DNA from: Chloroflexota bacterium
GTDB lineage: Bacteria; Chloroflexota; Dehalococcoidia; DSGV01
Direction of reading: 5' to 3'
DNA: 64,000 bases
NCBI GenBank assembly: GCA_021787985.1
Contig: JAJYLG010000001.1
Coordinates: forward strand, 50,163-114,162
The position numbers and the translations under genes are program-made. Below the pieces are notes generated by a model. It did no database searches. It was given only the letters and a program-made list of their open reading frames with translations, and was not told the DNA's origin. Below, one piece after another: positions 18,716 to 45,857 of this stretch (the stretch's first letter is position 1; each line of letters begins with the position of its first letter).

Positions 18716-19342
18716 CTACGTTGCCAGCAGCCAGTCGACGACGCGCCGGTACTGCGCAAGCGGCACCTCGCCGACAACGCGAACGGCGCCGGCCGCGTCG
18801 GCGAGCAGCACCGTCGGCACCGCGGTGATGCCGCGTGTCTGAGCCTCGATGAAGTCGGCGAGCACCGCTGCCCGCTGTGTGCCCTCGTCGAGGTCGCGCT
18901 GGAAGCCCGCCACGTCCAGCCCCGCGCTGTCGGCCACCTGGATGAGCACGTCTCGCTGTGAGATGTCCCGGTTGAGCTCGAAGTAGGCGCGCAGCAGCGC
19001 CTCGTGGTAGCGAGCGAATGCTTCTGCACCCTGCCGCTCGGCGCACTTTCCGGCCTCCAGGGCCGGCAGGCTGTGTGAGGGCATGTCGCGGTCGTCGGGC
19101 CACGGGTGGAAGGTGACGCCATCCGGCGCGCCCATCTCTGCGGCCATTCGCCAGGACTCGCGCGTGTGGTCGTCGGGGCGACGGCCCTCGGCCTCAGGCT
19201 CAGGTCGCAGCGGGTAGGCTTTCCACGTGACGTTCACGCTTCCCGCGTACGTGTGCGTGATCTTGCGCAGACGAACCGCCGCGTTGTAGCACCACGGTCA
19301 GAGGTAATCCGAGTACGCGGTGACGATGACTGGCCCAGCCAT
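18716..19342 (-). CDS. DsbA/FrnE-like thiol-disulfide oxidoreductase with in-frame TGA (predicted selenocysteine, UPWC motif)
   Basis: Translation from ATG 19340-19342 reads MAGPVIVTAYSDYL-TGA(19298-19300)-PWCYNAAVRLRKI.... The TGA sits where DsbA/FrnE proteins have the first Cys of CPWC. The downstream ORF 18716..19237 is in the same frame and continues a DsbA fold (...GITAVPTVLL...). A GAGG RBS is present. A hairpin lies 14 nt after the TGA. Confidence 0.7.
19266..19283 (-). other. SECIS-like stem-loop downstream of the DsbA-like TGA
   Basis: The mRNA forms CGCGG-CGGUUCGU-CUGCG (5 bp stem including a G-U pair, loop with GGUU), starting 14 nt after the UGA. Confidence 0.35.
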
Positions 19343-19432
19343 CCTCGATTCCCCCGTTGCGTGACTTGCCCAGGACCACAGACGATCGGTTCATCGAGGC
19401 TGAAGCCTGGGCTCCTTTCCGGGGCTCGGCGC

Positions 19433-21751
19433 TTACGCCCGCTGCCCCGGTTCTGTACGTTCCCTCGAAGACGAGCGCCGGACACGGGCGGCACGCGGCG
19501 CCCTGGTCTTGGTGGGAGACCGTGTGGCCGCGGCGGACAGGTCCGGCGCCGCCGATGGCTCGGGATCCGCAGCGCCGGTGCCCCCGAGCCCGTGGAGGTC
19601 GGGTGGTCGCCGTGCTTCGCCGATCGCCTTCCTGAAATGGCGGGCCGCAAGCGCCAAGCGCTCGGGCTCAGGCTCCTGACCCCGTTCGATCTGCTCCCGG
19701 ACGGCGAGCATGGTCGCCCGGCGACAGACGAAGCCGATGCGCCCGCCGGTCCAGCCGTCCGTGAGGTCGGCGAGCGTCTCCACTTCCACGTCATCCGCGA
19801 GAGGCTTGCCGTTCAGGTGTAGCTGGAAGATCTCCAGCCTCGCGGCCTTGGCCGGGAGCGGAAGCTCGATTACCAGCTCGAACCGACCGGGAGTCAACAG
19901 CGCGGCGTCGATGGCCTCCGGCCGATTCGCTGCCGCCATCACGACGATGCCGTCCGTCTCGGCCAGCTCATCCATCTCGGTGAGAAGCTGGCTAACGATG
20001 CGATCAGTGACTTGCGTGTCGGACGCGGCGTCCCGTGCGGGCGCCAACGCGGCGAGATCATCAAAGAAGAGGATGCACGGGGCGGTAGTCCGGGCGCGGC
20101 GGAACGCTTCCCGCACTCCCTTCTCGGTCTCGCCGAGCCACTTCGAGAGCAGCTCCGCGCCTCGGACAGGAATCAACGTGCTCTTGCTTTCGCCCGCGAC
20201 GGCTCTGGCCAGGAGGGTCTTCCCAGCTCCTGAAGGTCCGTACAGCAGCACGCCTTTCGGCGGTCGCGCTTGCGCCCGCTGGAAGAGCGCTGGATACTTC
20301 GTCGGCCAGACGATGGCCTCGTCGAGCGCCTGCTTCGCCTCTTCCAGCCCCGCCACGTCGCTCCAGCCGGCCCGAGGTGTTTCGCTGGACAGGCCGCGCA
20401 TCGCGGCCGGCTTCAGACCTGCCAGCGCTTCGAAGAAGTCGGCGCCGCTGACGATCAGGCTCTCCAGTGAGCTGGGCGACCAGTCGCCGGCGTTGCCGCC
20501 GGACGGCGCCATCTCCTTCCTCAGGCGCACCATTGCCGCCTCGCGGCACAAGTTGGCCAGGTCGGCGCCGACGAAGCCATGGGTCAGGTCGGCGATGCTG
20601 GCCAGATCGACGTCCGCGGCGAGCGGCATGGGGTGAGTGTGGATGGCCAAAATCTCGAGCCGCCCGGAGGTACCCGGCACCGGCACGTGGATCTCACGGT
20701 CGAACCTGCCAGGCCGGCGCAGGGCGGGATCGAGCATGTCGGGAGCGTTTGTGGCAGCGATGACGATCACCTGCTCCCGTGACTCGAGGCCGTCCATGAG
20801 CGCCATCAACTGCGCCACGACTCGCTTCTCCACGTCTCCGTAGACGTCCTCGCGCTTGAGCGCGACGGCGTCGATCTCGTCGAAGAAGATGACCGAGGGC
20901 GCATTCTCGCGGGCCTCGCGGAACACCTCGCGCAGGCGCGACTCCGACTCGCCATAGAATTTGTGGAAGATCTCCGGACCGCTGACGTGGATGAAGTGGG
21001 CCGAGGTCTCGCCCGCGACTGCCCGGGCGACCAACGTTTTCCCCGTGCCAGGCGGACCGTACAGGAGCACCCCTTTCGGCGGCTCGATCCCCAGCCGTTC
21101 GAAGACCTCTGGATGGAGGAGAGGCAGCTCTACCACCTCGCGCACCCGCTGCAGTTGCAGCGTCAGGCCACCGACATCGGCATAGGTCGTCCGGGGTCCG
21201 GACTCCGACGCACCCACCTGCAGGGCTGTCTCCTCGCAGATCTCAGCCGGGCCCGCCGGCTCCGTCGATTTCACGATGAACTCCGCGGGCCGTAGCTGGT
21301 CATCGTCGATACAAAGGTAGTCGCCCGGCTGCACGACCATGCTCTGAAACCGTGAGCTCAGCTCCTTCGTTCTGTGTCCATCACGATCCGGGAAACCGCC
21401 CAGTGGCACGAGGAGCACTCGCTCTGCGGCCGGGCAGGCGGCGACCTGCACGATCGACGCCGGCTCTCCGAGGTTCACCCGAGCGTTGCGCCGCACCAGC
21501 GCGTCGGCCTGCACGATGCCCTTCCCGCGGTCCGCGGTCCGCGTAGGGTACACCCGCGCGTGGGCAGCTCGCTTGCCGTGAACACGGACGACCTCACCAA
21601 CATGGGCGCCGATGCGCTCCATGTCCGCCGGATCGATGCGGACGATGCCCCTCGCCGCGTCCTCGGTCGGGGCTTCGGCGACCCGGCGCTCGATGCCTAC
21701 TCCGCCGTCCATCCGGTCCCCACCGCGGGCAACGCGGCCATCCTCCGTCAC
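19433..21751 (-). CDS. Cdc48/VCP-like double AAA+ ATPase (Cpa/VAT-like unfoldase)
   Basis: It has an N-terminal double-psi-barrel-like domain and two AAA modules, each with Walker A GPPGTGKT / GPSGAGKT and a second-region-of-homology. The GTG start at 21751 overlaps the upstream stop (GTGA). An alternative ATG start lies at 21712. Confidence 0.85.
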   Translation of the reverse strand: MTEDGRVARGGDRMDGGVGIERRVAEAPTEDAARGIVRIDPADMERIGAHVGEVVRVHGKRAAHARVYPTRTADRGKGIVQADALVRRNARVNLGEPASIVQVAACPAAERVLLVPLGGFPDRDGHRTKELSSRFQSMVVQPGDYLCIDDDQLRPAEFIVKSTEPAGPAEICEETALQVGASESGPRTTYADVGGLTLQLQRVREVVELPLLHPEVFERLGIEPPKGVLLYGPPGTGKTLVARAVAGETSAHFIHVSGPEIFHKFYGESESRLREVFREARENAPSVIFFDEIDAVALKREDVYGDVEKRVVAQLMALMDGLESREQVIVIAATNAPDMLDPALRRPGRFDREIHVPVPGTSGRLEILAIHTHPMPLAADVDLASIADLTHGFVGADLANLCREAAMVRLRKEMAPSGGNAGDWSPSSLESLIVSGADFFEALAGLKPAAMRGLSSETPRAGWSDVAGLEEAKQALDEAIVWPTKYPALFQRAQARPPKGVLLYGPSGAGKTLLARAVAGESKSTLIPVRGAELLSKWLGETEKGVREAFRRARTTAPCILFFDDLAALAPARDAASDTQVTDRIVSQLLTEMDELAETDGIVVMAAANRPEAIDAALLTPGRFELVIELPLPAKAARLEIFQLHLNGKPLADDVEVETLADLTDGWTGGRIGFVCRRATMLAVREQIERGQEPEPERLALAARHFRKAIGEARRPPDLHGLGGTGAADPEPSAAPDLSAAATRSPTKTRAPRAARVRRSSSRERTEPGQRA

Positions 21752-22695
21752 AGCGGTCGGCCGTGCAGGGCCCCGCCCCGCCCTGGGTCGCGGGCATCCG
21801 TCGCTGCCAACGCTGCGTCGAACAGCGCGGACCCGCCAGCCGTGCCACCAGCGGCTGTCCGTTGCAAGTCCAGCTCCCCCAGACGTTCGAGCACCTGCCT
21901 CGTCGTGCTCGTCATGACGGCGTCGATGCCGAGCCCGGTCATCGTCGCGAGCGAGTCGCCCATCTCCTTGGCACGCCGTGCCAGGTGCTGGGCCCCCTGC
22001 ACGATGAAGTAGTCGGCAGCCGTGTCGAAGGTGTTGCCCGAACCGAGCCGCAACGGCCAGACGATGTCACCGAAGCGCTCCAAGTCTATGCCGGCCCTGC
22101 GGGCGGCCATGCCAACCTCCCACAGGAGCGCCGAGTAGCCCTTGGTCCCGACCGAACGGATCATCTTCAGCACCGAGGCCGTGCCGATCCGCTCGTCGAC
22201 GACGACGGCCGCAAGGTTGTATGGCGCCATGCGCTCGGCGAACGACGCGGCGGCCGGCCCGGAGACGTAGAGCGGCTGCCGATGGCCACCGTACACGACG
22301 GCTCCCATCAGCGCCGCGTCGATGAACTGCGCCCCGGCCTGCAGCACTGGGGCCGCGGCCGCGGCCTTCCTGTCGGGCGCGCACGAGTTCAGGTCCACGT
22401 ACATCTGCGGCGCAGACAGAAACGGGGCCGCTCGTTGCGCGGCTTCCACGGCGCTGTCCGTCGTCACCGCCGAAAACACGATATCCGACTCGGCGGAGAG
22501 GGCGGCGATCGTGTCCACGAGCCGGGCGCCCGCTTGGGCGGCGTGGCGGCGGAACGAAGCGGCGTAGGGAGGACGATGGCGCGGCCCATCGACGAAAGCA
22601 ACGATGTTGCGGATCCCGTCCTGCGACAATCCCCTCGCGTGGTGGTAGCCGACCTCGCCGAAGCCGATGTAGCCGATGCGCGGAGGTGTAGCCAT
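21748..22695 (-). CDS. NAD(P)-binding oxidoreductase (6-phosphogluconate/3-hydroxyisobutyrate dehydrogenase-like NAD-binding domain)
   Basis: Starts at ATG 22693-22695 (MATPPRIGYIGFGEVGYHHARGL...), which is a Rossmann GxGxxG motif. The ORF-track N-terminus is Arg-rich. Confidence 0.7.
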   Translation of the reverse strand: MATPPRIGYIGFGEVGYHHARGLSQDGIRNIVAFVDGPRHRPPYAASFRRHAAQAGARLVDTIAALSAESDIVFSAVTTDSAVEAAQRAAPFLSAPQMYVDLNSCAPDRKAAAAAPVLQAGAQFIDAALMGAVVYGGHRQPLYVSGPAAASFAERMAPYNLAAVVVDERIGTASVLKMIRSVGTKGYSALLWEVGMAARRAGIDLERFGDIVWPLRLGSGNTFDTAADYFIVQGAQHLARRAKEMGDSLATMTGLGIDAVMTSTTRQVLERLGELDLQRTAAGGTAGGSALFDAALAATDARDPGRGGALHGRPL

Positions 22696-22711
22696 GTGCG
22701 CGTGTGCCCGT

Positions 22712-23590
22712 CTATCCACGTCCCGCTCCGCCGTCCGGCGGCGACGCCAGTCCGAGCAACTGGCGCGGATTGTCGCGCGCCATGCGGCCGAGGTCGCCCT
22801 CGGAGAGGCCACCATGGAGGAGCTGCGCGATGAACGTGCGGAAGCCCTCCGGCGGCGACGGATTGATCGCCTGCCCCAGGTCCGTTGAGAGGACGCACTG
22901 GTCCGCGCCTACCGCGCGGATGGCCGTCGCCAGCGACTCCACCGTGTGCGTGCCGACGTGATAGGTGCACACCACGTACGCGTGCTCGATGAAAGCCCCG
23001 CGCCGAGCGAGCTCTTGCTGCCAATCGATCGGGATCCACATGTCGGCGTGCGTCACCACCGTGGGGATCCCGCGACGGCACGACTCGCCGACCAGCGCGT
23101 CCTGCTCCTCCACGGAGAGGTGACCCGTTCCCAGGACGAGGCTCCGGTGCTGAATGATGTCGAGGATGTCGAGAACGGCCGGGCGGAGCTTCCCGGTCTC
23201 ATTCAGTACGGTGATTCCCGGGCGACCGTAGCGTTCCCGACTCCAGTGGTCGGCCGTGAACGTCGGCATCCACACCTTTCGGGCGCCGACACCGGCGGCG
23301 ACCTCGACCGCCCGCGGATTGAGGCCGCCAACTGACTCGTTGAGCGTCACGCTGCCGAACACCTCAATCCCGGGGACCATGCGGTTCACGACGTACGCCA
23401 CCGGCGACGTGGGGTACTCGTGGCTCTTGAAGATGAAGCCGCCCATCCCCAGGTCGCGCGCGGCCGACGCCAGGTCGACGATGTCGTGCCTCCGCGGGGA
23501 ACCCGCATCCGGTGCCGCGTGCACATGGATATCGATCGCGCCTCTCAGGATGGCGTCAACCGTGGCGGTGAACTCTCCGTCCGCAACCAC
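22712..23590 (-). CDS. Amidohydrolase-2-type TIM-barrel metal-dependent hydrolase
   Basis: ...AIDIHVHAAPD... gives the HxH metal ligands, and ...GTGHLSVEE... and ...VVTHADMW... follow. At 292 aa it is typical of PF04909-like hydrolases. Confidence 0.6.
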   Translation of the reverse strand: MVADGEFTATVDAILRGAIDIHVHAAPDAGSPRRHDIVDLASAARDLGMGGFIFKSHEYPTSPVAYVVNRMVPGIEVFGSVTLNESVGGLNPRAVEVAAGVGARKVWMPTFTADHWSRERYGRPGITVLNETGKLRPAVLDILDIIQHRSLVLGTGHLSVEEQDALVGESCRRGIPTVVTHADMWIPIDWQQELARRGAFIEHAYVVCTYHVGTHTVESLATAIRAVGADQCVLSTDLGQAINPSPPEGFRTFIAQLLHGGLSEGDLGRMARDNPRQLLGLASPPDGGAGRG

Positions 23591-23599
23591 ATTCCGCTC

Positions 23600-24688
23600 C
23601 TACTCGCGCAAGTCCGCGACGCGCGCGACCGGCGTTCCGTCCCGTCGGCACAGCGCCCGCGTCACCGGACGCGTCTGGTCCCCGAACGTGGGTTGCCAGC
23701 TACTGTGCTTGCCGGCGCCTCCTACCACGATGACGGAGATCGCCTCCGGCGCATCTGCGATGGGCACCATCGTGTCATCTCGGTCTGGGAGCCCATTGCG
23801 GTGCGCCAGGAAGGCCCGGTACTCGGGGCCGAGGCGTCCCAACGGGAACCGTGCCTGCTCGAACAGGAACTGCTTCACCGTGCGCTTCGAGAACCCGTCC
23901 CGGGCAAGCGTGGCGGCGTGCTCTGGCCCCAGGCTCAGCAGCGGCCAGCCACGGCCGAGGAGATTGTTGCTTCCGGCCTCGCCCATGGCGCCCGCGATCA
24001 GGTGGAGGATGCCGATCCCGGTGGTGCTGTAATGGTCCTGAATGTTGTGCGGGCCCTCGCAGCCGAAGACGGTCACCGTGCTGGTGTCTGGCGCGAACCC
24101 GCGCTCGACGTGCAGCGGCTCCCAGGGATTTTGCTCTTCGTTTTCGGCCACGCAGTAGGCGATCTTTGCCGGGTTCCCTTGAGTGGCGCGATCGCCGCGA
24201 CCGGGCAGCCCTCCGCCGATGTTCATCAGGATGAGGCGCATGGCTCTGCCGATCGTTGCGTTCGCGCGAAAGCCCTGGCCGAACGCGTTGTAACCGGCAT
24301 TGATGCTGAGCTCGCGCGCGACTGGCCCGTTGACGACGACCAATGGCGCGACCGGGTGGGTTGTCGCCTGGATCGAGTCGATGTTGAACGCCGGGTCGGC
24401 GATCGCCTCCACTGCCGCGATCACGACCGGTAGGAATTCCGGCCGGCAGCCCGCCATGGCCGCGTTGATCGCGATCCTTTCCACCGTGGCCTCGCCCTGC
24501 CTCGGAGGCAGCACCGCGACGACCTCCTGGCGATCCCGGTCTGTCCAGCCGAGGAGCTCCTCGACGAGGTCCTCGGTGGGCGGCACGATCGGCAGGCCGT
24601 CGGTCCAGCCGCGTTCTTGGTAGAGCTCGTTGATCGCTCGATACGAGTCCTCGACGCGCAGCGTCCGGGCCGCCGCTCCGTCAGCCAC
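23600..24688 (-). CDS. Uncharacterised conserved protein, UGSC-associated partner A (paralog of 31116..32156)
   Basis: It shares N-terminal ...GWTDGLPIVPPTE... and a central ...GQGFRANATIGRAMRLILMNIGGGLPG... block with the paralog. The GTG start (second GTG, 24686-24688) lies 6 nt after a GGGAGGGA RBS and overlaps the UGSC-A stop by 8 nt. Confidence 0.65.
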   Translation of the reverse strand: MADGAAARTLRVEDSYRAINELYQERGWTDGLPIVPPTEDLVEELLGWTDRDRQEVVAVLPPRQGEATVERIAINAAMAGCRPEFLPVVIAAVEAIADPAFNIDSIQATTHPVAPLVVVNGPVARELSINAGYNAFGQGFRANATIGRAMRLILMNIGGGLPGRGDRATQGNPAKIAYCVAENEEQNPWEPLHVERGFAPDTSTVTVFGCEGPHNIQDHYSTTGIGILHLIAGAMGEAGSNNLLGRGWPLLSLGPEHAATLARDGFSKRTVKQFLFEQARFPLGRLGPEYRAFLAHRNGLPDRDDTMVPIADAPEAISVIVVGGAGKHSSWQPTFGDQTRPVTRALCRRDGTPVARVADLRE

Positions 24689-25256
24689 GCTCACTCCCTC
24701 CCTGAACGCCCGGAGCTGGCAGCGGCACGGCGGCGCTCACCGCTGTTGCCACCGCATCGGCGAGGTCCTTCGCCTTCGCCACCACCTCCTCCTCGGGGAT
24801 GCCCCCCAGCGGGTGCTGCGTGAGCGCGATCGGAAGCTCGGGCAGGCCGCGGTTCCGCGCCTCGAGCCGTGCGAGGGCCTGGAACTCGTCCGTACCGACC
24901 ACTACGGTAGGAACTCCCTGCTTCTCGAGCAGGATGGCGCCGTGGATACTCCACGACGTGCACGACCCTCAGTCCGCGCTGCCCACGATGACGAAGTCGC
25001 ACGTCATCAGGTCAGCCAGCACGTCCGGGGGAGGCGGTCCGGCGATGGGCTTCTCCCGCTTCAACACTTCGCGTATGCCGTGAAGCTCCTGCAGCCGCTT
25101 GGCGACCGACAGCATGAGGATGTCCGCGTTCGGCTTGCCGTTGTCCAGGATCCCGACGCGCGCGCCGGCGAGGCTGTCCAGTCGCGGCGCCAGCCTGACG
25201 GAGGCCACCTTGGGTTCGGCCGTCGGGTCATAAACTCTCGTCCAACGCTCGGTCAT
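24681..25256 (-). CDS. UGSC-motif small selenoprotein A (in-frame TGA at 24969-24971)
   Basis: Starts at ATG 25254-25256 with an AAGGGAG RBS. The ORFs 24969..25295 and 24681..24902 are in one frame and joined by a TGA: ...DFVIVGSAD-U-GSCTSWSIHGAILLEKQGVPTVVVGTDEF.... The paralog 32176..32718 has a TGA at the same aligned position. Confidence 0.7.
24939..24957 (-). other. SECIS-like stem-loop downstream of the UGSC-A TGA
   Basis: The mRNA forms GUCGUGG-AGUAU-CCACGGC (7 bp stem, 5-nt loop with GU), starting 11 nt after the UGA. Confidence 0.45.
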
Positions 25257-25366
25257 TGGCGTGCTCCCTTCGCCCTGCTGCTCTTCCTTCGCCACAGTCT
25301 ATGGGAACCCCCGTGCAGGAGGGCGAGACGCGCGCGAAGCTCGCCCTCCTGCATCAAGGTCGGCGG

Positions 25367-26848: not shown

Positions 26849-26939
26849 CCTTTCCTCCCTGCACGAACTCCGAAGCGATGGTCATCGCTAATGACTTCAC
26901 GCGCTTCGCTACGGTGCCTGTTTGTCTGTTCGCACTCCT

Positions 26940-31115: not shown

Positions 31116-32156
31116 TCACGGCGCCACCGCCAGGTCACGCACGACGGCCGAGGTCATTTGTGTGTCTCCAAAGTTCGAGCAGACCGTGACGTGATACGGC
31201 TCGTCCCCGCCCGCCACGACCAGCACGATGTCTTCCGGCTGGGCGGCGACGGCATGCTCTTCCGAGATGGCGCGGCGCTCGGGGCGGCCGCCCAGGGCCT
31301 GGATCTCGTCCGGGAAGCGCGACCGCGGCACCTTCGCGTGCTCGTACAGCCATTCCTTGGTGCGCTGCTTGTCGTAGCCCTGGCTCTGGAGCAGATTGGC
31401 GTGGCCGTAGCTCATGATCACCAGCGGATTCCCGTGCTGGAACTCGACGTTGTTGGCGCCCACCTGCCCGAGCGTGTCCGCCACCGCCAGCAGCACGCTC
31501 TCCGCCTTCTTGTAGATGGCGAGGACGTTGGCCGTCCCGATCGCCCCGACGCAGGTAACGACACTCTCGTTCGCAGCGAAACCTCGTTCGACGTGCAGCG
31601 GGGGCCACGGGCTGCGCTCCTCGTCCTCGCCGAAGCAGAACGTGTACTTCCCCGGCATCCCGTGCAGCGCCTGGTCCACGGTGCCGGGAGCGGCGCCACC
31701 GATGTGCAGCATGCAGAGGCGGACCGCCCGCCCGATCGTGGCGTTCGCGCGCCAGCCGGGGCCGAGCAGCCCGCGCTGGCAGTTGATGCCGATCGTGCGT
31801 CGTATCGGCCCGTTGACGATGATGGCGGGTCCAACGGGATTGGTCGTGGTCTGGATGCCGTGGAGGTTGAAATCGGGGATCGCCAGCGCCTCGACCGCGG
31901 CGATAACCGTCGACATGTACTCCGGCAGGCAGCCCGCCATCACCGCGTTGGCCGCGATCGTCTCGATGGTGGCCGCGCCCCCCGCCGGGTCGAGGTAGGC
32001 GATGAGCTCGTCCGGCGGGCGTGCGGTCGCCGCCACCATGGCCGCGACCCGCTCCTCCGTCGGGGGTATCAGGGGCAGTCCGTCTCCCCAGCCCTGGGCC
32101 TGGGCGTAGTCCAACCACCCATCGAGTGAGTCCGGGACCTCTCGAACGGTAGCCAC
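31116..32156 (-). CDS. Uncharacterised conserved protein, UGSC-associated partner B (paralog of 23600..24688)
   Basis: Contains ...GWGDGLPLIPPTEE... and ...GPGWRANATIGRAVRLCMLHIGGAAPG.... It has a GTG start 20 nt after the UGSC-B stop. Confidence 0.65.
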   Translation of the reverse strand: MATVREVPDSLDGWLDYAQAQGWGDGLPLIPPTEERVAAMVAATARPPDELIAYLDPAGGAATIETIAANAVMAGCLPEYMSTVIAAVEALAIPDFNLHGIQTTTNPVGPAIIVNGPIRRTIGINCQRGLLGPGWRANATIGRAVRLCMLHIGGAAPGTVDQALHGMPGKYTFCFGEDEERSPWPPLHVERGFAANESVVTCVGAIGTANVLAIYKKAESVLLAVADTLGQVGANNVEFQHGNPLVIMSYGHANLLQSQGYDKQRTKEWLYEHAKVPRSRFPDEIQALGGRPERRAISEEHAVAAQPEDIVLVVAGGDEPYHVTVCSNFGDTQMTSAVVRDLAVAP

Positions 32157-32175: not shown

Positions 32176-32718
32176 TTACGCTTCCAGCGGGCGCGGCGCC
32201 GCCACTTTGGCGACCACGTCGTCGATCGCGTTCCTGATCACGCCGCGCGAGCTCTCGGTGTCGCCGAACTCGGTTACCTCGGTTGGCGGAAGCACCACCA
32301 TCGGGGAGCTGCTCGCCCCCTTACCCTTGAACGTGACCGTGGCGAGGTTGACGAACCGCTCGGTCACCAGTACCACGGACGGGATGCCCCGTCGAATCAG
32401 CTCGATCGTGTCGTGGACACTCCACGCGGTGCAGGACCCTCAGTTGGCGAGCCCCACGATGGCGATGTCGGCGTTCTCCGTCGCCTGTTGGAGCACGGCC
32501 TCCGACGCGGCGGCGGCGATGGGCACCTCGAACTCGAGGACCTGCGCGACGCCGAACTCATTGACCAGCGTGCCGCGCATCTCGTCGACCAGCTTGTTCA
32601 TGCTCTGCCAGCCGTTGTTGAGAAAGACGACGGACTTGCCCCGCAGGTCTTGCGGGGCGAACTCCGCGGTCACTCGGGTCGCACGAAACGCACCAGCCGT
32701 CGGTTCTACGATCCGCAT
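32176..32718 (-). CDS. UGSC-motif small selenoprotein B (in-frame TGA at ~32440-32442)
   Basis: Starts at ATG 32716-32718 with a GGGAGAAACAC RBS. ORFs 32440..32718 and 32176..32376 are in the same frame: ...DIAIVGLAN-U-GSCTAWSVHDTIELIRRGIPSVVLVTERF.... This is the same architecture as UGSC-A. Confidence 0.7.
32411..32425 (-). other. SECIS-like stem-loop downstream of the UGSC-B TGA
   Basis: The mRNA forms CGUGG-AGUGU-CCACG, 14 nt after the UGA. It is near-identical in shape to the UGSC-A hairpin (loop AGUGU versus AGUAU). Confidence 0.4.
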
Positions 32719-33065: not shown

Positions 33066-33141
<76 letters not shown>

Positions 33142-34227: not shown

Positions 34228-34637
34228 GTTGCTTTCTCCTCCCGGTGAGAAACCGTGCGGTGTTCGCCCTTACTTGCTCGCGGACCAGCGTCCCCTCGTG
34301 GCACAGGTCCGAAACCTGTGCCACAGGAGACCCGCGGTGCGCACTTCATTCCTCGTGTCCCCGCCCCTCGCCGGACGCCCGATCCTGTCGCTCCGGGCTC
34401 GGGGCGCTGGCGAGCCGGAGTGTGATGAAGTCGGTCAGGTCGGCGAGGGAGGAGAAGTACAGCCGCTGCCCCGAGGGCACGTGCTCGACCGAGCCGGGCC
34501 ATTGGCCGGGCCCCGCGCGGCCCGGCTCGTGCCAGATGCGCACGATGAACAGATGCTGCGGCCGTCGCGCGGGCTCGGCCAATTTCGCCTCCTTACGGTA
34601 TCCGTGACACTGCGGGCTCAGGTGGGTCACCCGACGG

Positions 34638-35381: not shown

Positions 35382-35602
35382 GACCTCCTTTTCTCCTCCC
35401 CTGGCGGCCGGGTGCTCGCAGACCCAGCGCACCGCTAGTGTTCACGGCTCGTTGTAAACGGCCTGCCGTCCAGAAACCGTCCAAGGGGGGTCCGACCGGC
35501 AGTTGAAGCTACCCGTGGCTCGGCCGTCGGAGGCTCCCACGGCTGGAGCAGGTGGTGGCACAGGCTTGAAGCCTGTGCCACGTCTCGCTCTTACTCGCCG
35601 GC

Positions 35603-39200: not shown

Positions 39201-39590
39201 CTCCAGCAGGTCGGCAGTGTAGAGCGCCACCGCGCTGGCCAGGTCGTCGACGGTGGAGCCCGCTTGCTCGAACTGGGATACATCGAGCCAGTAGTCCGCG
39301 GCAGGGTTCCAACGGACCGTCTTGGCGTCGCTCAGCAGCCAGGGGTGGCGCGGCGGGGCGGCGGGCAGGGCGCGTTGCAGGTGGTGGAGATGCCGGCGCA
39401 GGTTGGCGCGGGCATTCGCTTCCGATTCGTCGGGCCAGAGAGCGAACGCGAGGGTATCCCGCCCGATGGGTTGCGAGGCGTGGAGCAGCAGATACGCCCA
39501 GAGCGGCAGCGTCTTGGGCGGAGCCGCCAGCCGAAACGGCTGCCCATCGGCGAGGAAGCGTGGCTGGCCGAAGAGGTGTATGCGCAGCAT
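36072..39590 (-). CDS. SARP/AfsR-family regulator: OmpR-type winged helix plus BTAD, NB-ARC-type ATPase and C-terminal TPR region (~1170 aa)
   Basis: From ATG 39588-39590 the protein reads MLRIHLFGQPRFLADGQPFRLAAPPKTLPLWAYLLLHASQPIGRDTLAFALWPDE..., then a Walker A VLVGGEAGIGKSRLAAEL, then a long helical repeat region. Confidence 0.8.
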   Translation of the reverse strand: MLRIHLFGQPRFLADGQPFRLAAPPKTLPLWAYLLLHASQPIGRDTLAFALWPDESEANARANLRRHLHHLQRALPAAPPRHPWLLSDAKTVRWNPAADYWLDVSQFEQAGSTVDDLASAVALYTADLLENVYEDWLFAERERLRNLYVAHLDRLISESWTHRDHRRAIAYCQQLLAKDPLREDVAQRLIALRYEPGDRAGAVLEYRRFVRRLQEELAALPMPETTALYEAVVRGQQIPGVQPARETAAANEEEKRSAPLPFVGREAEPEQLRACWTRAARGRGGVVLVGGEAGIGKSRLAAELALVVRAEAARVLAGTARPAEPMPYHALVEALRSALPLLAALDLDPLWFAAAGPLLPELRARAGKPVALPPLDPEREQARLFEALARVLEGLAQPRPLLVILEDLHWGGAAMVTLLEVLARRAPRHPLLVLVTYREEETGRAHPLRDLRRRLQRENLITHLALERLPVSAVERMVERAPGLSTRAGSERMPLPELARRLHSASEGNPLFLNELVHELLESGAAALPELGPRPSSLSGGLRATVADRLARLSPTARALAEVAAVAGTAFDVELAREVSGWEEDRVLDALGELHDHHLVREVGGGSRFDYAFTHHLIQAAVYAGIPAPARRRRHRRVARVMEELYSQRLDDLTAELALHFDRGGDPDRAAHYSLRAARHALALHAGEEALAHLSRCLELTSAPRPRCDALLLRERVHSRRGDREAQRADLAELGGLARSLGDGDLLCELLHRQVLFHRALGERQAEAALIEALHAAAAERPRWQVEALQAEAVHQLLLNRYDAAWVALQRVLGLRQARDDAGGQAECCCLLADVAVQQGRFEEAEDLIRTALAFRGWQMNQSLMVQTLGSAVGALFAQQRFDSAGALGQQMLDLCRTIGDREGEAGAHASLGMVAARLFRIQEARQHYERAASLYHALGKRQGEAAVLVNAGMLAGGLGQYTESVDSFHKAEELFRSLDDLRGQAACALNAGMAAFFQGDHPAAEAAARRGLELARAIRNPVLEGTALGNLGAAERELGRLAQAVEHMEAGLAIRRRLDRPADLGADLCDLTVAYLRAGNLAKARACADELLDLLGCTADAMIHPQYILWAGAQTYRALGEGRRAHELFDEAHATLQAKAAAIPDAESRVTFLRLPFNAELVAARESGGWR

Positions 39591-39899
39591 GGGAGCATCT
39601 ACCGTCCCGCAGTAGCGCCCGCCGGGCAACGTGGCCCGTCGAGACGAGGAGCGGTTGAACCGCTCTTGCCTTACGTTCTCCTCTAGCAGCGAGAATACCC
39701 CATTCCGGCCGTGACGCCGCGCTCTCGGTGGTGACAGCGAGAACCCCGCGGCCCGCCTTGCGCGGAAGGACGCCCCGCATCCGTCCTACGCCCGGGAGCC
39801 CGGCTGCTCAGGAACCAGAAAGGCAAGCGGTGTCCGGTGGGTGCCGACCGAGTACAACCCGTTGCGGCCGTTGGCGGCCGCACCCTACACTTGCTGCGC

Positions 39900-39976
39900 G
39901 GGCGGTTAGCTCAGTTGGTTAGAGCGCCACGTTGACATCGTGGAGGTCACTGGTTCGAGTCCAGTATCGCCCACCA
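39900..39976 (+). tRNA. tRNA-Val (anticodon GAC)
   Basis: Acceptor GGGCGGT/ATCGCCC with a G-U pair, D-arm GCTC-AGTTGGTTA-GAGC, anticodon loop TTGACAT, T-arm ACTGG-TTCGAGT-CCAGT, and an encoded CCA. Confidence 0.9.
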
Positions 39977-40282
39977 CTCCGCAGCGTTTCTCGGCTCGCC
40001 GCTGGCGGGCCGCTTTCTTCAACCGTCGGCTATACTGCGGGTACAGGCGTCGAAGCGGACACGCGGCGTCCCAGCGAGCGCGCAGAGACGGGGCCCTCCG
40101 GCTGCAAGGCCCCCCGCAGCGCAGACGCACGCACCACCGCGGAGCCGGGCGAAATCAATCGCCTCCGGACGGCCCCGTTACCGGCCAGGAACAAGGCCCG
40201 CCTGCGGCGGGTGAACCAGGGTGGAACCACGGAGCGCGCCTCCCGTCCCTCGGACGCGGAGGCGCGTTTGCTTGGAGCGACG

Positions 40283-40549
40283 ATGAGCAAGAAGAAGCGC
40301 GCCAAGACGGCGGCCCCAACGGGATCGCGCGGCTGGAAGGCGTTCTCCGGCGTCTTCACCGTCATCTACGCGGTCGGCGCCGGGGTGAGCGTCGTGGCCG
40401 GGGTGGCCTTCGCTACCTATGGGGACTGGGTCGGGGCGGCGCTGATGCTTGGGAGCGCCGCGGTCCTTGGCCTGGGCGTCGTCCAGCACCTGGGCTATTT
40501 CCGTCGCGGCAGGCCGATCACGCGGCGCGGGAAGGATGGTGAGCGATGA
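40283..40549 (+). CDS. Small two-helix membrane protein (88 aa)
   Basis: Reads MSKKKRAKTAAPTGSRGWKAFSGVFTVIYAVGAGVSVVAGVAFATYGDWVGAALMLGSAAVLGLGVVQHLGYFRRG.... A GGAG RBS lies 7 nt upstream. Its stop overlaps the thrS ATG (ATGA). Confidence 0.45.
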   Translation: MSKKKRAKTAAPTGSRGWKAFSGVFTVIYAVGAGVSVVAGVAFATYGDWVGAALMLGSAAVLGLGVVQHLGYFRRGRPITRRGKDGER

Positions 40550-42309
40550 GCGCGAAGCTGGAGGCGATGTCCAAGGGGGAGCGGCTGCTCCGCATGCGGC
40601 ACTCGGCCTCGCACGTGATGGCGCAGGCGGTCCTCGAGATCTTCCCGATGGCGAAGTGGGCCATCGGCCCTGCCATCGACACCGGCTTCTACTACGACTT
40701 CGACCTCCCGCGCCCGCTCACGCCGGAGGACCTGGAAGATGTCGCGCGCAGGATGCAGGAAACGGTCCGCCGCGGCGACGCGTTCGCGCAGCGCTTCGTC
40801 GACAAGGAGGAAGCGCGCCGCATCTTCGCCGGCCAGCCGTACAAGATCGAGCTGATCGACGGCATCGCCGATGAGCGGGTCTCGCTCTACCAGCAGGGCC
40901 CGTTCCTCGACCTCTGCGAAGGGCCGCACGTCGAGCGGACAGACCAGATCGGCGCGTTCAAGCTGATGAGCGTGGCCGGGGCGTATTGGCGGGGAGACGA
41001 GCGCCGGCCGATGCTGCAACGCATCTACGGCGCTCTGTTCGAGACGCAGCAGGACCTGGACCAGCACCTCCACCAGCTCGAGGAGGCGCGCAGGCGCGAT
41101 CACCGGCGCCTTGGTCGCGAGCTGGGCCTGTTCACCTCGGCGGAGGAGGTCGGCGCGGGGCTGCCGCTGTGGCTGCCCAAGGGCGCCGCCGTCCGGCGCA
41201 TTCTCGAGACCTACATCGTGGAGGAGGAGCGGAGGCGCGGCTACCAGCACGTCTACACGCCCCATCTGGCGAAGGTGGAGCTGTACCAGCGGTCCGGCCA
41301 TTGGGATCACTATCGCGACTCGATGTTCCCGCCCATGGTGCTGGAGAACGAGCAGCTTGTGCTGCGGCCGATGAACTGCCCGCACCACATCACGATCTAC
41401 GGCGCCGGCCAGCACTCCTACCGTGAGCTGCCGGTCCGGCTGGCCGAGCTGGGCACGATGTACCGCTATGAGAAGTCGGGCGAGCTGGCCGGCCTGTCGC
41501 GCGTGCGCGCCATGACGCTCAACGATGCCCACATCTTCTGCCGGCTCGACCAGCTCAAGGACGAGTTCCTGGGGGTGCTCGACCTGATCCGCGAGGCGTA
41601 CCGCGTGCTGGGCTTCCGCGACCACTGGTACCGGCTTTCGCTGCGCGACCCCGCCGACACGGAGAAGTACGTCCAGAACGACGCCATGTGGGACGAGGCC
41701 GAACGCCTGCTGCACGAGGCGATGGACGAGACCGATCTTGAGTACGTCGACGCGCCGGGCGAGGCTTCCTTCTACGGGCCGAAGCTCGACGTGCAGGTGC
41801 GCAACGCCACCGGCCGGGACGAGACCGTCTCGACCATCCAGATCGACTTCCACCTGCCGGAGCGGTTCGGGCTCGAGTACATCGGCGCGGACGGTCAGCC
41901 GCACCGGCCGGTGATCATCCATCGCGGGGTGATCTCGACGATGGAGCGGCTGATGGCTTTTCTGATCGAGACCTACGCCGGCGTCTTCCCGGTGTGGCTG
42001 GCGCCGGTCCAGGCTACCTTCATCCCGATCGCCGACCGGCATCTGGATTACGCGCGGGCGGCGGCACGGCGCTTTATCGAAGCCGGGCTGCGGGTGGAGG
42101 TGGACGACGGCCAAGAGCGGATGAGCGCCAAGATCCGCAACGCCCAGCTCCAGAAAGTGCCGTACATGCTGGTGTGCGGCGACCGGGAGGTCGGCGGGGG
42201 GGCGCTGGCCGTGCGGACGCGCGGTGGGCAGGACCTCGGCCCGATGCCGGCCGAGGCGGTGCTGCGGCGGCTGCTCGAGGAGTCGAAGCCCGGGGCGGAG
42301 TCGACGTGA
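40546..42309 (+). CDS. thrS: Threonine--tRNA ligase (short form without N-terminal TGS domain)
   Basis: Contains ...RMRHSASHVMAQAV... (the editing-domain HxxxH), ...DHRRLGRELGLF... and class II motifs 2 and 3, and at 587 aa is consistent with a short-form ThrRS. Confidence 0.9.
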   Translation: MSAKLEAMSKGERLLRMRHSASHVMAQAVLEIFPMAKWAIGPAIDTGFYYDFDLPRPLTPEDLEDVARRMQETVRRGDAFAQRFVDKEEARRIFAGQPYKIELIDGIADERVSLYQQGPFLDLCEGPHVERTDQIGAFKLMSVAGAYWRGDERRPMLQRIYGALFETQQDLDQHLHQLEEARRRDHRRLGRELGLFTSAEEVGAGLPLWLPKGAAVRRILETYIVEEERRRGYQHVYTPHLAKVELYQRSGHWDHYRDSMFPPMVLENEQLVLRPMNCPHHITIYGAGQHSYRELPVRLAELGTMYRYEKSGELAGLSRVRAMTLNDAHIFCRLDQLKDEFLGVLDLIREAYRVLGFRDHWYRLSLRDPADTEKYVQNDAMWDEAERLLHEAMDETDLEYVDAPGEASFYGPKLDVQVRNATGRDETVSTIQIDFHLPERFGLEYIGADGQPHRPVIIHRGVISTMERLMAFLIETYAGVFPVWLAPVQATFIPIADRHLDYARAAARRFIEAGLRVEVDDGQERMSAKIRNAQLQKVPYMLVCGDREVGGGALAVRTRGGQDLGPMPAEAVLRRLLEESKPGAEST

Positions 42310-42429
42310 AGGCGGCCGTGACACGCGCTTGACGTGACACGACGAGCTTCGGCTGGAGTGCCGGCGCAAGCACACCAACGCGGACGGCGCGCGAACGCTC
42401 GCAGCCACGAGCCCCGGTGCGCCTCGGCG

Positions 42430-42556
42430 GAGCGCGCGCGCCCACGCCCACCGTCACTCCCGCGCGCCCGCCGTCATTCCCGCGAAGCCTGCCCCCGCGG
42501 AGGCGGGGGGCGGGAATCCAGCATCGAGCGGCCTTCTCCCCGCCCTGGATTCCGGC
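42430..42556. repeat. Structured intergenic repeat, copy B (inverted relative to copy A), plus an adjacent GGAATCCAG/CTGGATTCC hairpin
   Basis: Tandem CCCACCGTCACTCCCGCG / CCCGCCGTCATTCCCGCG units are followed by CATTCCCGCGAAGCCTGCCCCCGCGGAGGCGGGGGGCGGGAATCCAG. Confidence 0.6.
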
Positions 42557-42570
42557 TCGCGCTCGCGTCC

Positions 42571-42645
42571 GCTCGCCAGGATGCTGGGCTACGACGAGGC
42601 GGACGTGGACTGGCTGCCGTCCGCCGAGGCGGAGTCCTTGGCGAC
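42571..42645 (+). pseudogene. ~75-nt fragment duplicating an internal segment of the ArsM-like methyltransferase gene (45012-45086)
   Basis: ~90% nucleotide identity. It translates to LARMLGYDEADVDWLPSAEAESLA versus LARMLGYDEADLDRLPSAVAESFA in the full gene. Confidence 0.5.
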
Positions 42646-42945
42646 CGCGGATGCGGCGCCCGGGAGAATGAAAGATTTCTCCCTATGGTCTGTCGGGCTT
42701 GACAGCATTATGAACGTTTCGTATGATTCTCTCTGTCCGAGCGCGTGCCAGACGGCGCTGCTCGGAGGGGACGTCGGATGCGCCCTGCGTCGCGCTGTCG
42801 GCTTTGCGCTACACCGTTCGAAGGTCCAGGCGGTTGGGTCAACCGAGTGTTCCGTCGCGTGACGCGCTTCCGTAAGAATCCCAACATCTGCACAACGTGA
42901 AACGAACTTACGCCCCTGGGTCAGGGGCAGCGGCGCACAGTCAGC

Positions 42946-43485
42946 GTGCTCTTCGCTGACTGCCGCGGCTTTTCCGCCCTCGTCGAGAGCTACCCGGCTG
43001 AAGAAGTGGTCCGGGTGCTCAACCGCTTTTTCCAAGCCGCCACCGACGTATTGCTGGCCCACGATGCCTGTATCGACAAGCTCATGGGAGACCAGCTCAT
43101 GGCCGTGTTCGGTGCCCCGATTGTGCGGCCGGACCACGCAGACCAGGCCGTCGAGGCCGCGGTCGAGATACAGACGGCGATGACGGAGTTGTTTCCCCGC
43201 GGGGGAGAGCCGCGCCTCCGGATCGGCATCGCCATCAACAGCGGCGTGGCTCTGGTGGGCAACCTGGGCTCTCGCGAGTTCAAGGACTTCACGGCCATCG
43301 GCGACGTGGTCAATCTGGGCGCCCACCTTCAGGAGCAGGCAGGACCTGGCGAGGTGCTCGTTACCGAGGCAACCACAGGGATGCTGGCGAAGCAGCCGGA
43401 CCACGCCGCGGGGCGAGTCGTGGCCGTCAAGGGTCGAGCTGAGCCAGTGCGGGTAACGGCCCTCGTGTTTCCGGAAGGCACTTGA
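42946..43485 (+). CDS. Class III adenylate/guanylate cyclase catalytic (CHD) domain protein
   Basis: Contains ...RRTVSVLFADCRGFSALVESY... and ...IGIAINSGVALVGNLGSREFKDFTAIGDVVNLGAHL.... It has a GTG start at 42946 (a CTG further upstream is also possible). No other domains. Confidence 0.6.
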   Translation: MLFADCRGFSALVESYPAEEVVRVLNRFFQAATDVLLAHDACIDKLMGDQLMAVFGAPIVRPDHADQAVEAAVEIQTAMTELFPRGGEPRLRIGIAINSGVALVGNLGSREFKDFTAIGDVVNLGAHLQEQAGPGEVLVTEATTGMLAKQPDHAAGRVVAVKGRAEPVRVTALVFPEGT

Positions 43486-44177
43486 TGGCCCCGGTCACGC
43501 CGCTGCTGCGGGTCCCCCTGTTCGCGGGGCTGCGTCCGCCCGAGCTGGAGGAGATCGCGCGGCGGCTGGTCCCGCGCCTCTATCGGCGGGGCCAGGTGGT
43601 CTTTCACCAGGGAGACCCCGGCGGCTGCCTCTACATCATTGAGCGCGGAAGCGTGAAGGTCTCCCTTCTGTCGGAGACGGGAGAGGAAGCGCTGCTCGCA
43701 ATCATGGGCGCCGGCGACTTCTTCGGCGAGCTGGCGTTGATCGACGGTCAACCCAGATCGGCCACCGTGATCGCCCTGGCAGACACGCGTGCCTGCACGC
43801 TTGACCACCAGAGCTTCCTCGCCTTCTTCGGGGCCTCGCCCGAGGCTGCCGTCGCGGTCTGCGGCGCCTTGGCGGCTCGGCTGCGCCAGATGAACCAGCG
43901 TTTCGCCGAGGTCATCTCCCTTGATCTGCCCGGACGACTGGCCAAGTGCCTGCTCGAGCTGGCGGAGCGGAACGGCGAGGCGGTGGCCGAGGGAGTGGCG
44001 TTCGAGCTGCCGCTCAGCCAGAGGGAGATAGGGGAGCTGGTGGGGGCGTCGCGCCAAAGCGTCAATCGCGCGCTCGCCCAGTGGGAACACCTGGGACTCT
44101 TACGACGACGCCACCGCCGCATCGTCCTCGTCCGTCCGGACGCCCTGCAACGGCGCATCGTGCCACGGCTGTCGTAA
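43485..44177 (+). CDS. Crp/Fnr-family transcriptional regulator
   Basis: Has a cNMP-binding domain (...FFGELALIDGQPRSATVIA...) and a C-terminal HTH (...SQREIGELVGASRQSVNRAL...). The ATG overlaps the upstream stop (TGATG). Confidence 0.8.
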   Translation: MAPVTPLLRVPLFAGLRPPELEEIARRLVPRLYRRGQVVFHQGDPGGCLYIIERGSVKVSLLSETGEEALLAIMGAGDFFGELALIDGQPRSATVIALADTRACTLDHQSFLAFFGASPEAAVAVCGALAARLRQMNQRFAEVISLDLPGRLAKCLLELAERNGEAVAEGVAFELPLSQREIGELVGASRQSVNRALAQWEHLGLLRRRHRRIVLVRPDALQRRIVPRLS

Positions 44178-44280
44178 AGATGACACCTCAAGTGTCTCGC
44201 CGACGCTACTCGCGCGGTCGGGCGGCGAGGCGTAATGAAGACGCTTGATCATAAGCACTCGCGCAACGGGGAGGACAGCG

Positions 44281-44838
44281 ATGACGACAACCATCAACCG
44301 CAACGGCATCAACATCGATCAGCTCATGCAGACGATTGAGGCCATCCGCCAGGACCCGGAGCTGGCGCGGTTCCAGTTCCGGGCACACAGCGAGTGGCAA
44401 GGCGGCGCACGCTCCGCTACCAGGATTCAGGGTTTCTATGGCGCCGGCCAAGAGGACAGCTCGCGTTCGCGGCCGTTCGAGGTCGGTGGGGACGAGCCGC
44501 CGCTGCTCCTGGGCACGGACACGGCTCCCAACGCGGTGGAGACGGTGCTGGCGGCCCTCGCCTCCTGCCTGACAGTGGGCTACGTCTACAACGCCGCGGC
44601 GCAGGGCGTCAAGATCGAGTCGCTGGACTTCGACCTGGAGGGCGATGCGGACCTGCGGGGCTTCCTGGGCCTGTCGGAGACGGTCCGGCCGGGGTTCGGC
44701 GGGATCCGGCTCACCTACCGCGTGAAGGCAGATGCACCTCGCGAGAAGCTCGAAGAGCTATGCGAGTACGTTCAACGCACCTCACCGGTGCTGGATATCA
44801 TCCGCAATCCTGTGCCGGTGTCGATCGAACTGCGGTAG
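44281..44838 (+). CDS. OsmC/Ohr-family protein
   Basis: Contains ...FRAHSEWQGGARSATRIQGFYGAGQ... and ...LAALASCLTVGYVYNAAAQGVKIESL.... A GGGGAGGA RBS precedes it. Confidence 0.75.
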   Translation: MTTTINRNGINIDQLMQTIEAIRQDPELARFQFRAHSEWQGGARSATRIQGFYGAGQEDSSRSRPFEVGGDEPPLLLGTDTAPNAVETVLAALASCLTVGYVYNAAAQGVKIESLDFDLEGDADLRGFLGLSETVRPGFGGIRLTYRVKADAPREKLEELCEYVQRTSPVLDIIRNPVPVSIELR

Positions 44839-44885
44839 GCCGGCGCGGGCCAGGGCAGGACGTCGAGAATCGGGAGGCGAGCGGG

Positions 44886-45857
44886 ATGAGAGGACGACTC
44901 CAGGCGGCGCTGGTCGACCGCGACGCGCTTCGGTCTCAGATCCGGGACAAGTACACGGTGGTGGCCCTCGAACCGCAGACGGGCTTCCATTTCCACACGG
45001 GCCGGCCGCTCGCCAGGATGCTCGGCTACGACGAGGCGGACCTGGACCGGCTGCCGTCCGCCGTGGCGGAGTCCTTCGCCGGCACGGGCAACCCGTTCGC
45101 CTTCGGACGGCTGGCGGAAGGCGAGGTGGTCGTCGACATCGGGTGCGGCGCCGGGTTCGACACCTTGTTGGCGGCTGGGCAGGTCGGGCCACGGGGCCGA
45201 GTCATTGCCGTGGACATGACCCCCGCCATGCTCGACAAGGCCGCCGCGGGCGCCCTGGTCCTCAACCTCCGCAACGTCGAGGTACGCCACGGCGTTGCGG
45301 AGGAGCTGCCGGTGCCCAGTCAATCGGCCGACGTTGTCATCAGCAACGGCGTCATGAATCTGTGCCCGGACAAGCTCGCGGCCATGCGCGAGGTCCGCCG
45401 TGTGCTGCGGCCAGGCGGGCGTTTCCAGATCGGCGACCTGGTCGTGCACCAGGAGGTGCCACAGGACGCGAAGGACGACATCGACCTGTGGTCCGGCTGA
45501 ATCGCCGGGGCTCTGCTGGAAGCAGAGTGGGACTGGGTCCTCAAGCACGCCGGGTTCATCGACGTGCGCTGGGGCCGCCAGGTGGATGTCTTCGCGGGCT
45601 CCAAGCACGAGTCCGACGCTCAGGAATTCGGTGCGCGTGGCGTCACGTTCGCTGGTAGGAGACCCATGCGGGCGGCCGACCCCGCGCCCGTGTGGGCGGA
45701 GCGCGACTCTGATGGCGGCCGCCGGTGCGCGGTCCCGGTCGCGTCGGCTGGCCAGCAGCCAGGCCCTTCGTGTGGTAAGATGCAGTCACGGGGACGAAAG
45801 GGCTCGACAGGGGCCGGCGTGCTCGGGTTGCAGGCCGAGGTGCCATCAACCTCGTAA
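44886..45857 (+). CDS. ArsM-like SAM-dependent methyltransferase with in-frame TGA (45498-45500) at the conserved catalytic Cys position. Predicted selenoprotein; 3' end uncertain.
   Basis: Contains a GCGAG SAM motif (VVDIGCGAGFDTLL) and ...VVISNGVMNLCPDK.... Around the TGA it reads DIDLWSG-TGA-IAGALLEAEWDWVLKHAGFIDVRW..., and typical ArsM sequence continues in frame after it. The nominal stop at 45855-45857 overlaps the tmRNA 5' end by ~68 nt. Confidence 0.55.
45511..45527 (+). other. SECIS-like stem-loop 10 nt downstream of the ArsM-like TGA
   Basis: CUCUGC-UGGAA-GCAGAG: a 6-bp stem with a 5-nt loop. Confidence 0.4.

Follow-up and report, generated by a model that had tools for sequence, protein, structure and literature searches.

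Four genes within a 64-kb stretch of a Chloroflexota (Dehalococcoidia) metagenome-assembled genome (MAG; assembly GCA_021787985.1, contig JAJYLG010000001.1, positions 50,163 to 114,162; hereafter the window, in whose own numbering all coordinates are given) are very probably ordinary bacterial selenoprotein genes, in an organism that would decode selected UGA codons as selenocysteine (Sec, U). These genes encode a DsbA-like thiol-disulfide oxidoreductase, two paralogues of the UGSC family (UGSC1 and UGSC2) and an ArsM-like S-adenosylmethionine (SAM)-dependent methyltransferase. Comparative conservation is the decisive evidence for this assignment, the hairpins downstream of the TGA codons being weak evidence when taken alone. 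Indeed, in the loci compared the TGA is never lost, is never replaced by another stop and is always followed by conserved coding sequence; thus, it does not act as a terminator.

Results

In-frame TGA codons at cysteine-equivalent positions

Translation showed that the in-frame stop in each of the four genes is a TGA, with one such codon per gene. All four genes begin with ATG preceded by a purine-rich Shine-Dalgarno-like stretch, in a window with a GC content of 67-72%. At all four sites U aligns with a conserved cysteine of full-length homologues or solved structures, in agreement with an earlier reading of this DNA (the sequence-only reading) that had placed four in-frame TGAs at Cys-equivalent positions of the same genes. 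The read-through products, with U replaced by C for profile searches, cover complete Pfam domains (DSBA and UGSC). TGA is also the commonest stop codon in the window, terminating 22 of the 42 genes, which means that recoding is confined to particular sites and the code as a whole has not been reassigned. A crude six-frame screen of the window for TGA flanked by coding-like composition recovered three of the four candidates along with two antisense artefacts, and yielded no fifth recoding candidate; it missed the DsbA-like gene, in which only 14 codons precede the TGA. Two pairs of open reading frames (ORFs) that lie in frame across a TGA (at 3111 on the minus strand and 47196 on the plus strand) were rejected as ordinary neighbouring genes.

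Conservation of the TGA codon in the UGSC family

The UGSC1 gene (24681..25256, minus strand; 191 codons) carries its putative Sec-UGA at 24969-24971 (codon 96, AD-U-GSC) and is a full family member, scoring 171.8 bits against PF24696 (cut-off 25) and 136.5 bits against NF041046 (cut-off 125). Its paralogue UGSC2 (32176..32718, minus strand; 180 codons, 35% identical to UGSC1), with the TGA at 32440-32442 (codon 93, AN-U-GSC), is a member by Pfam only (115 bits against PF24696, cut-off 25; 86.7 bits against NF041046, below 125). On read-through, the UGSC domain is covered from position 2 to 170 of the 172 positions of PF24696. For comparative analysis, a scan with the protein encoded next to UGSC (the partner protein described below), taking one genome per species, provided 80 loci from Rokubacteria/Methylomirabilota, Chloroflexota/Dehalococcoidia and Betaproteobacteria, 75 of which gave tblastn UGSC matches. 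In these 75 loci TGA occupies the U column at every one of the 86 homologous sites whose alignments span that position, with protein identity across the codon ranging from 29 to 70%.

Conservation of the TGA codon in the ArsM-like methyltransferase

The methyltransferase gene (44886..45857, plus strand; Methyltransf_31, 105 bits) has its putative Sec-UGA at 45498-45500 (codon 205, WSG-U-IAGAL). Full-length Cys homologues (~261 aa, 60-70% identical) possess an invariant Cys in LWS(N/S)-C-IAGAL at the position of the window TGA, and many closer database relatives end at residue 204, their gene calls having been cut short by this TGA. The aligned codon is TGA in 80/80 best metagenome loci (63-77% identity), and in the 75 loci whose contig reaches that far it is followed by a conserved tail of ~56 aa (...SKHESDAxEFxTRGVTF...) and then by a real stop. 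In the window, the homologous part ends near 45665 and the ORF continues for 63 codons to a TAA at 45855-45857, overlapping the tmRNA gene (ssrA, 45790-46143) by 68 nt; variable long tails are also found in several relatives.

The roles of the four conserved cysteines of CmArsM (Cys44, Cys72, Cys174 and Cys224) are established from ArsM structures. Alignment of the window protein to solved ArsM structures equates U205 with Cys224, Thr67 with Cys72 and Gly155 with Cys174, the Cys-to-Thr and Cys-to-Gly replacements being shared by the whole subfamily, and residues 1-64, which would hold the Cys44 equivalent, contain no Cys. Thus, of the four ArsM cysteines the Cys224 equivalent alone is present, as a putative Sec, within the UxxG motif (U-I-A-G) expected at this position. 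The best NCBIfam matches are the ArsM-type selenoprotein models NF041537, NF041536 and NF047649, all far below their cut-offs, and the ArsM model NF008823 gives 221.3 bits, short of its cut-off of 263. The "ArsM-Sec" label of the sequence-only reading is in need of correction, since a single one of the four cysteines is kept, as a putative Sec, and the score lies below the ArsM cut-off.

The commonest neighbour of the Sec-methyltransferase is an ArsR-family helix-turn-helix protein fused to rhodanese (20 loci, among L086-L165 and the Cys forms L167-L170); DinB_2 proteins are encoded downstream in nine loci, and TusA with DsrE, or a lactamase_B-rhodanese (persulfide-dioxygenase-type) protein, upstream in several. 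The neighbours in the examined loci are not ars genes. The OsmC, Crp and cyclase genes of the window were considered as conserved neighbours and rejected, as they are not kept beside relatives. The OsmC-like protein encoded directly upstream of the methyltransferase (44245-44838, plus strand) is a Cys form that scores 65 bits against NF041052 "OsmC-related (seleno)protein" (cut-off 95).

The DsbA-like gene

The DsbA-like gene (18716..19342, minus strand; 208 codons) encodes a FrnE-like, predicted cytoplasmic protein with a putative U-P-W-C active site, its TGA being located at 19298-19300 (codon 15, SDYL-U-PWC). The read-through product matches PF01323 (DSBA) with 86 bits (gathering threshold 25.6) over residues 7-199, spanning profile positions 2-187 of 191. 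Its closest solved relative is FrnE of Deinococcus radiodurans (5cnw, E=1e-10), in which U is aligned with the first Cys of CPWC; Cys homologues carry SDYLCPWCYNAAVRL and read SDYL-C-PWCYNAAVRL. A DSBA domain with U at the N-terminal position of CxxC is the combination shared with DsbA-like selenoprotein form 1, and the C-P-W-C context around U is identical to that of FrnE and the Cys homologues. The window protein differs from FrnE in its distant sequence similarity and from most Cys homologues in having no C-terminal tail.

Three distinct sequences, the closest ones available, all have TGA at this codon (VYSDYL-TGA-PWCYNAAVRL), namely L082-L084 (identical, and thus counted as one), L085 and the window itself. 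In the protein database, the two nearest relatives (65-66% identical) are both N-terminally truncated calls, with the TGA upstream of the called start. A further difference from FrnE and DsbA-like form 1 is the location of the window gene downstream of a CDC48-like AAA ATPase gene, a synteny kept in relatives: the ATPase is found upstream both in the window and at the P0122 loci L082-L083, and on the short contig of L085 (P0123) an unannotated partial ORF alone lies at the ATPase position. Convergent with the DsbA-like gene is a gene for a thioredoxin-reductase-like flavoprotein (17617-18660, plus strand; TIGR01292, 278 bits, below cut-off), which could serve as a reductant of the DsbA-like selenoprotein.

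Hairpins downstream of the TGA codons

In all four genes a hairpin starts 10-14 nt 3' of the TGA, a distance that was re-measured and agrees with the sequence-only reading, and its apical loop begins with G (GUU, GUA, GUG and GGA). As candidate selenocysteine insertion sequence (SECIS) elements, these hairpins are located at 19266-19283 (minus strand) in the DsbA-like gene (CGCGGCGG-UUC.. with a bulged U; 7 bp, loop GUU, UGA-to-loop distance 21 nt), at 24938-24958 (minus strand) in UGSC1 (CGUCGUGGA-GUA-UCCACGGCG; 9 bp, loop GUA, 19 nt, -12.9 kcal/mol), at 32412-32426 (minus strand) in UGSC2 (CGUGGA-GUG-UCCACG; 6 bp, loop GUG, 19 nt, -7.8 kcal/mol) and at 45511-45527 (plus strand) in the methyltransferase gene (CUCUGCU-GGA-AGCAGAG; 17 nt). 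The UGA-to-loop distances of 17-21 nt fall within the range of 16-37 nt published for bacterial SECIS (bSECIS) elements (PMC13188914). When assessed by a bSECIS model (loop of 3-9 nt having G in its initial two positions, stem 4 bp or longer, spacing of 16-37 nt, minimum free energy of -7.5 or lower), UGSC1 and the methyltransferase pass clearly and UGSC2 is borderline.

Constraint at the RNA level was observed for two of the three hairpin types (UGSC and methyltransferase). In the UGSC family, the alignment of 66 distinct sequences has 89% of its hairpin cells paired, both-side changes occur at three pairs (e.g., CGUGGA/UCCACG to CGAGCA/UGCUCG and CGCCCGC/GCGGGCG), the covariation score was matched by 0/500 shuffles, and the UGSC2 hairpin sits in the columns of the UGSC1 hairpin. 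In the methyltransferase, conservation at the third positions of the hairpin codons GCU CUG CUG GAA GCA GAG amounts to 78-100% (94-100% when the five stem codons are taken alone), as compared with 52-84% for flanking fourfold-degenerate codons, and the frozen codons include A/T-ending ones that are unusual for a GC-rich genome; the stem is paired at 6/6 positions in 62 of 64 distinct TGA forms vs. 2-5/6 in the four Cys-form genes. In the DsbA-like hairpin, the outer pair changes from C-G (window) to U-A (L082), an apparent compensatory exchange, but L085 has a mismatch there; the energies are -5.4 kcal/mol in the window and -7.3 kcal/mol in L082. Of the four elements, this one is the least secure.

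Selenocysteine machinery

The absence of selA, selB, selD and tRNA-Sec from the window, as noted by the sequence-only reading, was borne out by profile scans, ARAGORN and Rfam. In the 64-kb window, ARAGORN and Rfam (at gathering threshold) detected tRNA-Lys, tRNA-Val and tmRNA and no tRNA-Sec, and between 18000 and 46500 there was no Rfam match to SECIS or tRNA-Sec up to E=5. The region at 57-63 kb has three ORFs whose size was suggestive, but they encode NuoF-like, PRK07233-family flavin (FAD/NAD-binding) oxidoreductase and flippase-like proteins. The NuoF-like gene, together with a NuoE/formate-dehydrogenase-gamma-like gene (57411-59859, minus strand), has no adjacent gene for the potentially Sec-containing FdhA, and mutS is next to this pair.

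Among the loci fetched for comparison, a Casimicrobiaceae MAG (L071) contains selA (TIGR00474, 575 bits) directly followed by tRNA-Sec (anticodon TCA) at 16476-18171, 6.5 kb from its UGSC-partner module and with a thioredoxin-reductase-like gene between. ARAGORN and motif scans of the fetched loci (1.6 Mb) found no Sec machinery outside L071, and a tblastn search of the fetched loci gave no selD match, which is a weak negative as the E. coli SelD query sequence was unverified. We infer that selA, selB, selD and selC are located elsewhere in the genome.

The UGSC partner protein

Each UGSC gene of the window is accompanied by a gene for a partner protein: partner 1 (23600..24694, minus strand; 364 aa), which overlaps the end of UGSC1 by 14 nt, and partner 2 (31116..32156, minus strand; 346 aa), which shares 42% identity with the former. 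Profile scans assigned neither protein to a Pfam or NCBIfam family, and the homologues, which form at least 8000 clusters, are all named "hypothetical protein". The partner has two invariant cysteines. The AF2 model of partner 1 has a pLDDT of 83.9, and structure comparison of this model found no clear fold relative. The closest relatives of the window partner are encoded in Rokubacteria/Methylomirabilota MAGs (at most 76% identity).

UGSC and partner are adjacent in 75/75 loci with a UGSC match, and at 13 of the 86 sites UGSC is fused in frame to a partner-type domain, the ORF running 435-683 codons beyond the Sec codon (loci L051, L057, L058, L066, L068 and L080, and second copies in L069, L072, L074, L077, L078 and L079). 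The sole literature hint at such pairing is the mention of a UGSC fusion to an "Unknown_1" domain in the GOS study (PMC2398784); the partner fusion may correspond to that one. Thioredoxin-reductase-like genes occur near the UGSC modules of L051, L067 and L071. A conserved neighbourhood wider than the UGSC-partner pair was rejected, as in other loci the pair is not accompanied by DUF6282, the NAD-binding protein or the ABC transporter.

Genomic context of the four genes

Three of the four putative Sec genes belong to a co-directional minus-strand run of 13 genes spanning 14 kb, with short or overlapping intergenic gaps, in the order UGSC2, partner 2, five ABC-transporter genes, UGSC1, partner 1, DUF6282, NAD-binding protein, CDC48-like AAA ATPase and DsbA-like gene. 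Operon clustering of selenoprotein genes is a phenomenon already described in the literature. Elsewhere in the window (1-17351 and 46290-53012), five acyl-CoA dehydrogenases, five family III CoA-transferases and a second Liv-type ABC transporter are encoded, and the repeated CoA-transferase/dehydrogenase sets point to extensive acyl-CoA or organic-acid catabolism. Between tRNA-Val and a threonyl-tRNA synthetase gene at 40546 there is a weak T-box-leader-like match (40041-40253, plus strand; 23.9 bits and E=0.13, well short of the gathering threshold), which may be a diverged T-box or a chance match.

Discussion

Selenocysteine decoding and its alternatives

If these genes work as in the bacterial system already established, the G(U/G) apical loop of a short stem-loop would be placed 17-21 nt 3' of the UGA, and this element would recruit the SelB·GTP·Sec-tRNA(Sec) complex, which would outcompete release factor 2 at that single codon, all other UGAs of the window being expected to terminate normally. 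The arrangement resembles the E. coli fdhF paradigm, in which the stem-loop lies in the coding region directly 3' of the UGA; it departs from a consensus bSECIS in that hairpin sequences differ among the three window families, which makes these hairpins candidate SelB targets. In the redox or catalytic motifs concerned (UxxC, UGSC or UxxG), Sec would take the place of the nucleophilic Cys. Accounted for in this manner, the DsbA-like protein would be an oxidoreductase of the FrnE/DsbA-like type that resides in the cytoplasm and has U-P-W-C as its active site, each UGSC paralogue would be translationally coupled to its uncharacterised ~350-aa partner, and the sole retained "arsenic" cysteine of the ArsM-like methyltransferase would be Sec.

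The codons themselves, their Cys equivalence and the conservation of both the TGA and the downstream frame are observed directly. Several points nevertheless weigh against Sec decoding of the four genes. That Sec is the residue inserted in all four proteins, as well as their biochemical roles, is something we infer from sequence. A model-compliant hairpin is present at 175 of 432 random in-frame sites of window genes (41%), and in 60-nt folds the observed hairpins are not more stable than shuffles (z-scores of -1.8 to +0.95); in view of this background and of the shuffle null, the presence of a hairpin was dropped as primary evidence. The hairpin of the DsbA-like gene does not reach the energy threshold of the model, and the comparative support for this gene consists of three distinct sequences. 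The clear passes of UGSC1 and the methyltransferase in the bSECIS assessment are to be seen against this background rate of 41%, with UGSC2 borderline and the DsbA-like element failing on energy. Finally, selA, selB and selD were not found in Pfam/NCBIfam scans of the ~50 ORFs of the window.

If the four TGAs were true stops, and the genes pseudogenes or naturally split or truncated ones, this would fit the public gene calls, which end or begin at the TGA (P0001, 204 aa; P0121, 143 aa), and the use of TGA as the main stop codon of the window. Such an explanation is extremely improbable, as protein-level conservation extends past the TGA in 80 and 86 independent loci without the codon ever drifting to a sense codon or to another stop, the RNA downstream of the TGA is constrained in UGSC and the methyltransferase, and the truncated products would be left without the active-site helix (DsbA) or with half a domain (UGSC). 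Reading of UGA by a mechanism that does not need selenium (near-cognate insertion of Trp or Cys, or a suppressor tRNA) would be compatible with a window in which no Sec machinery is seen, and in some lineages selenium scarcity can lead to Cys being placed at Sec codons. We consider this very unlikely, given that the TGA positions are exactly those at which known selenoprotein families carry Sec, that the hairpins combine a G-first apical loop with bacterial SECIS spacing, and that selA and tRNA-Sec are found beside the UGSC module in L071. Assembly or sequencing errors in the metagenome contig, with TGC or TGT as the true codons, deserve mention because the source is a MAG and the Olavius study warned that errors creating an in-frame TGA are possible in single sequences (PMC1976440). 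The probability of this is practically negligible: Logan assemblies made independently from this sample (SRR13170411) give the same truncated calls (L081 and L166), and the TGA recurs at the corresponding codon in dozens of unrelated assemblies. Sec decoding is therefore the interpretation that we retain, and the claim of the sequence-only reading that the organism utilises selenium has held up, UGA being almost certainly decoded as Sec and the four TGAs being genuine recoding sites.

Relation to known selenoprotein families

The description of the selenoproteome as "partly novel" did not survive comparison with the existing record, as NCBIfam, Pfam or published work already includes UGSC, DsbA-like UxxC and arsenite-methyltransferase UxxG proteins. 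In 2007 the UGSC-containing protein was described as a selenoprotein without an assigned function (PMC1976440), and UGSC is among the most abundant families in the GOS data (255 Sec vs. 21 Cys forms), with enrichment in non-marine samples (PMC2398784). The same table of that study lists "DsbA 1" (UxxC) and "arsenite S-adenosylmethyltransferase", the Sargasso Sea study having already listed a DsbA-like UxxC selenoprotein, and a 2026 review includes UGSC, DsbA-like and ArsM selenoproteins, with UxxG as the ArsM Sec motif (PMC13188914). With these families already catalogued, the window genes are new, mis-annotated members of known selenoprotein families. An "expanded" selenoproteome remains a plausible reading, as the closest relatives of the partner protein belong to Rokubacteria/Methylomirabilota MAGs and the largest bacterial count, 63 predicted selenoprotein genes, is reported for a MAG of Methylomirabilota (PMC13188914).

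The two UGSC proteins of the window share with their family (NF041046 "UGSC family (seleno)protein", PF24696; Zhang & Gladyshev 2007/2008) the U-G-S-C motif, a length of ~180-190 aa, the hairpin directly 3' of the UGA and a strong preference for Sec over Cys; they are distinguished by the occurrence of two copies, one of them (UGSC2) divergent, in a single co-directional cluster flanking an ABC transporter. The methyltransferase has the SAM-methyltransferase core in common with ArsM/AS3MT (NF008823; CmArsM 4fr0/4fs8, CrArsM 5evj) and their selenoprotein forms, and its predicted Sec occupies the same UxxG motif as in the ArsM selenoproteins NF041536, NF041537 and NF047649. Unlike the latter, it is a single-domain protein of ~260 aa without AhpD, DUF2284 or UXPK extensions, and unlike ArsM it has lost all but one of the conserved cysteines and scores under the cut-off.

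Implications

Conceptually, nothing new is shown here about Sec decoding itself. The practical consequence is that four genes appear mis-annotated as truncated in public data (for two of them, on the same contig, as the calls of 204 and 143 aa), and that recognising the recoding restores their active sites. The window also provides a concrete and well-supported example of selenoprotein density.

Two further leads emerge from the comparative analysis. The loss of three of the four ArsM cysteines, together with neighbours of the ArsR-rhodanese, TusA/DsrE and DinB-like types, suggests that the ArsM-like subfamily may act on sulfur or selenium species, and a substrate of this kind appears as plausible as arsenite. 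We put forward, tentatively and as a joint proposal that may well prove wrong in one part or the other, that UGSC and its ~350-aa partner form a two-component enzyme of uncharacterised chemistry that is widespread and depends on Sec almost obligately, and that the ArsM-like subfamily methylates sulfur or selenium species (such as a persulfide, perselenide or sulfide on a single Sec/Cys) and not arsenite. Overall, the UGSC-partner module is a useful lead towards an uncharacterised selenoenzyme, as is the evidence that members of this "ArsM" subfamily probably do not methylate arsenite.

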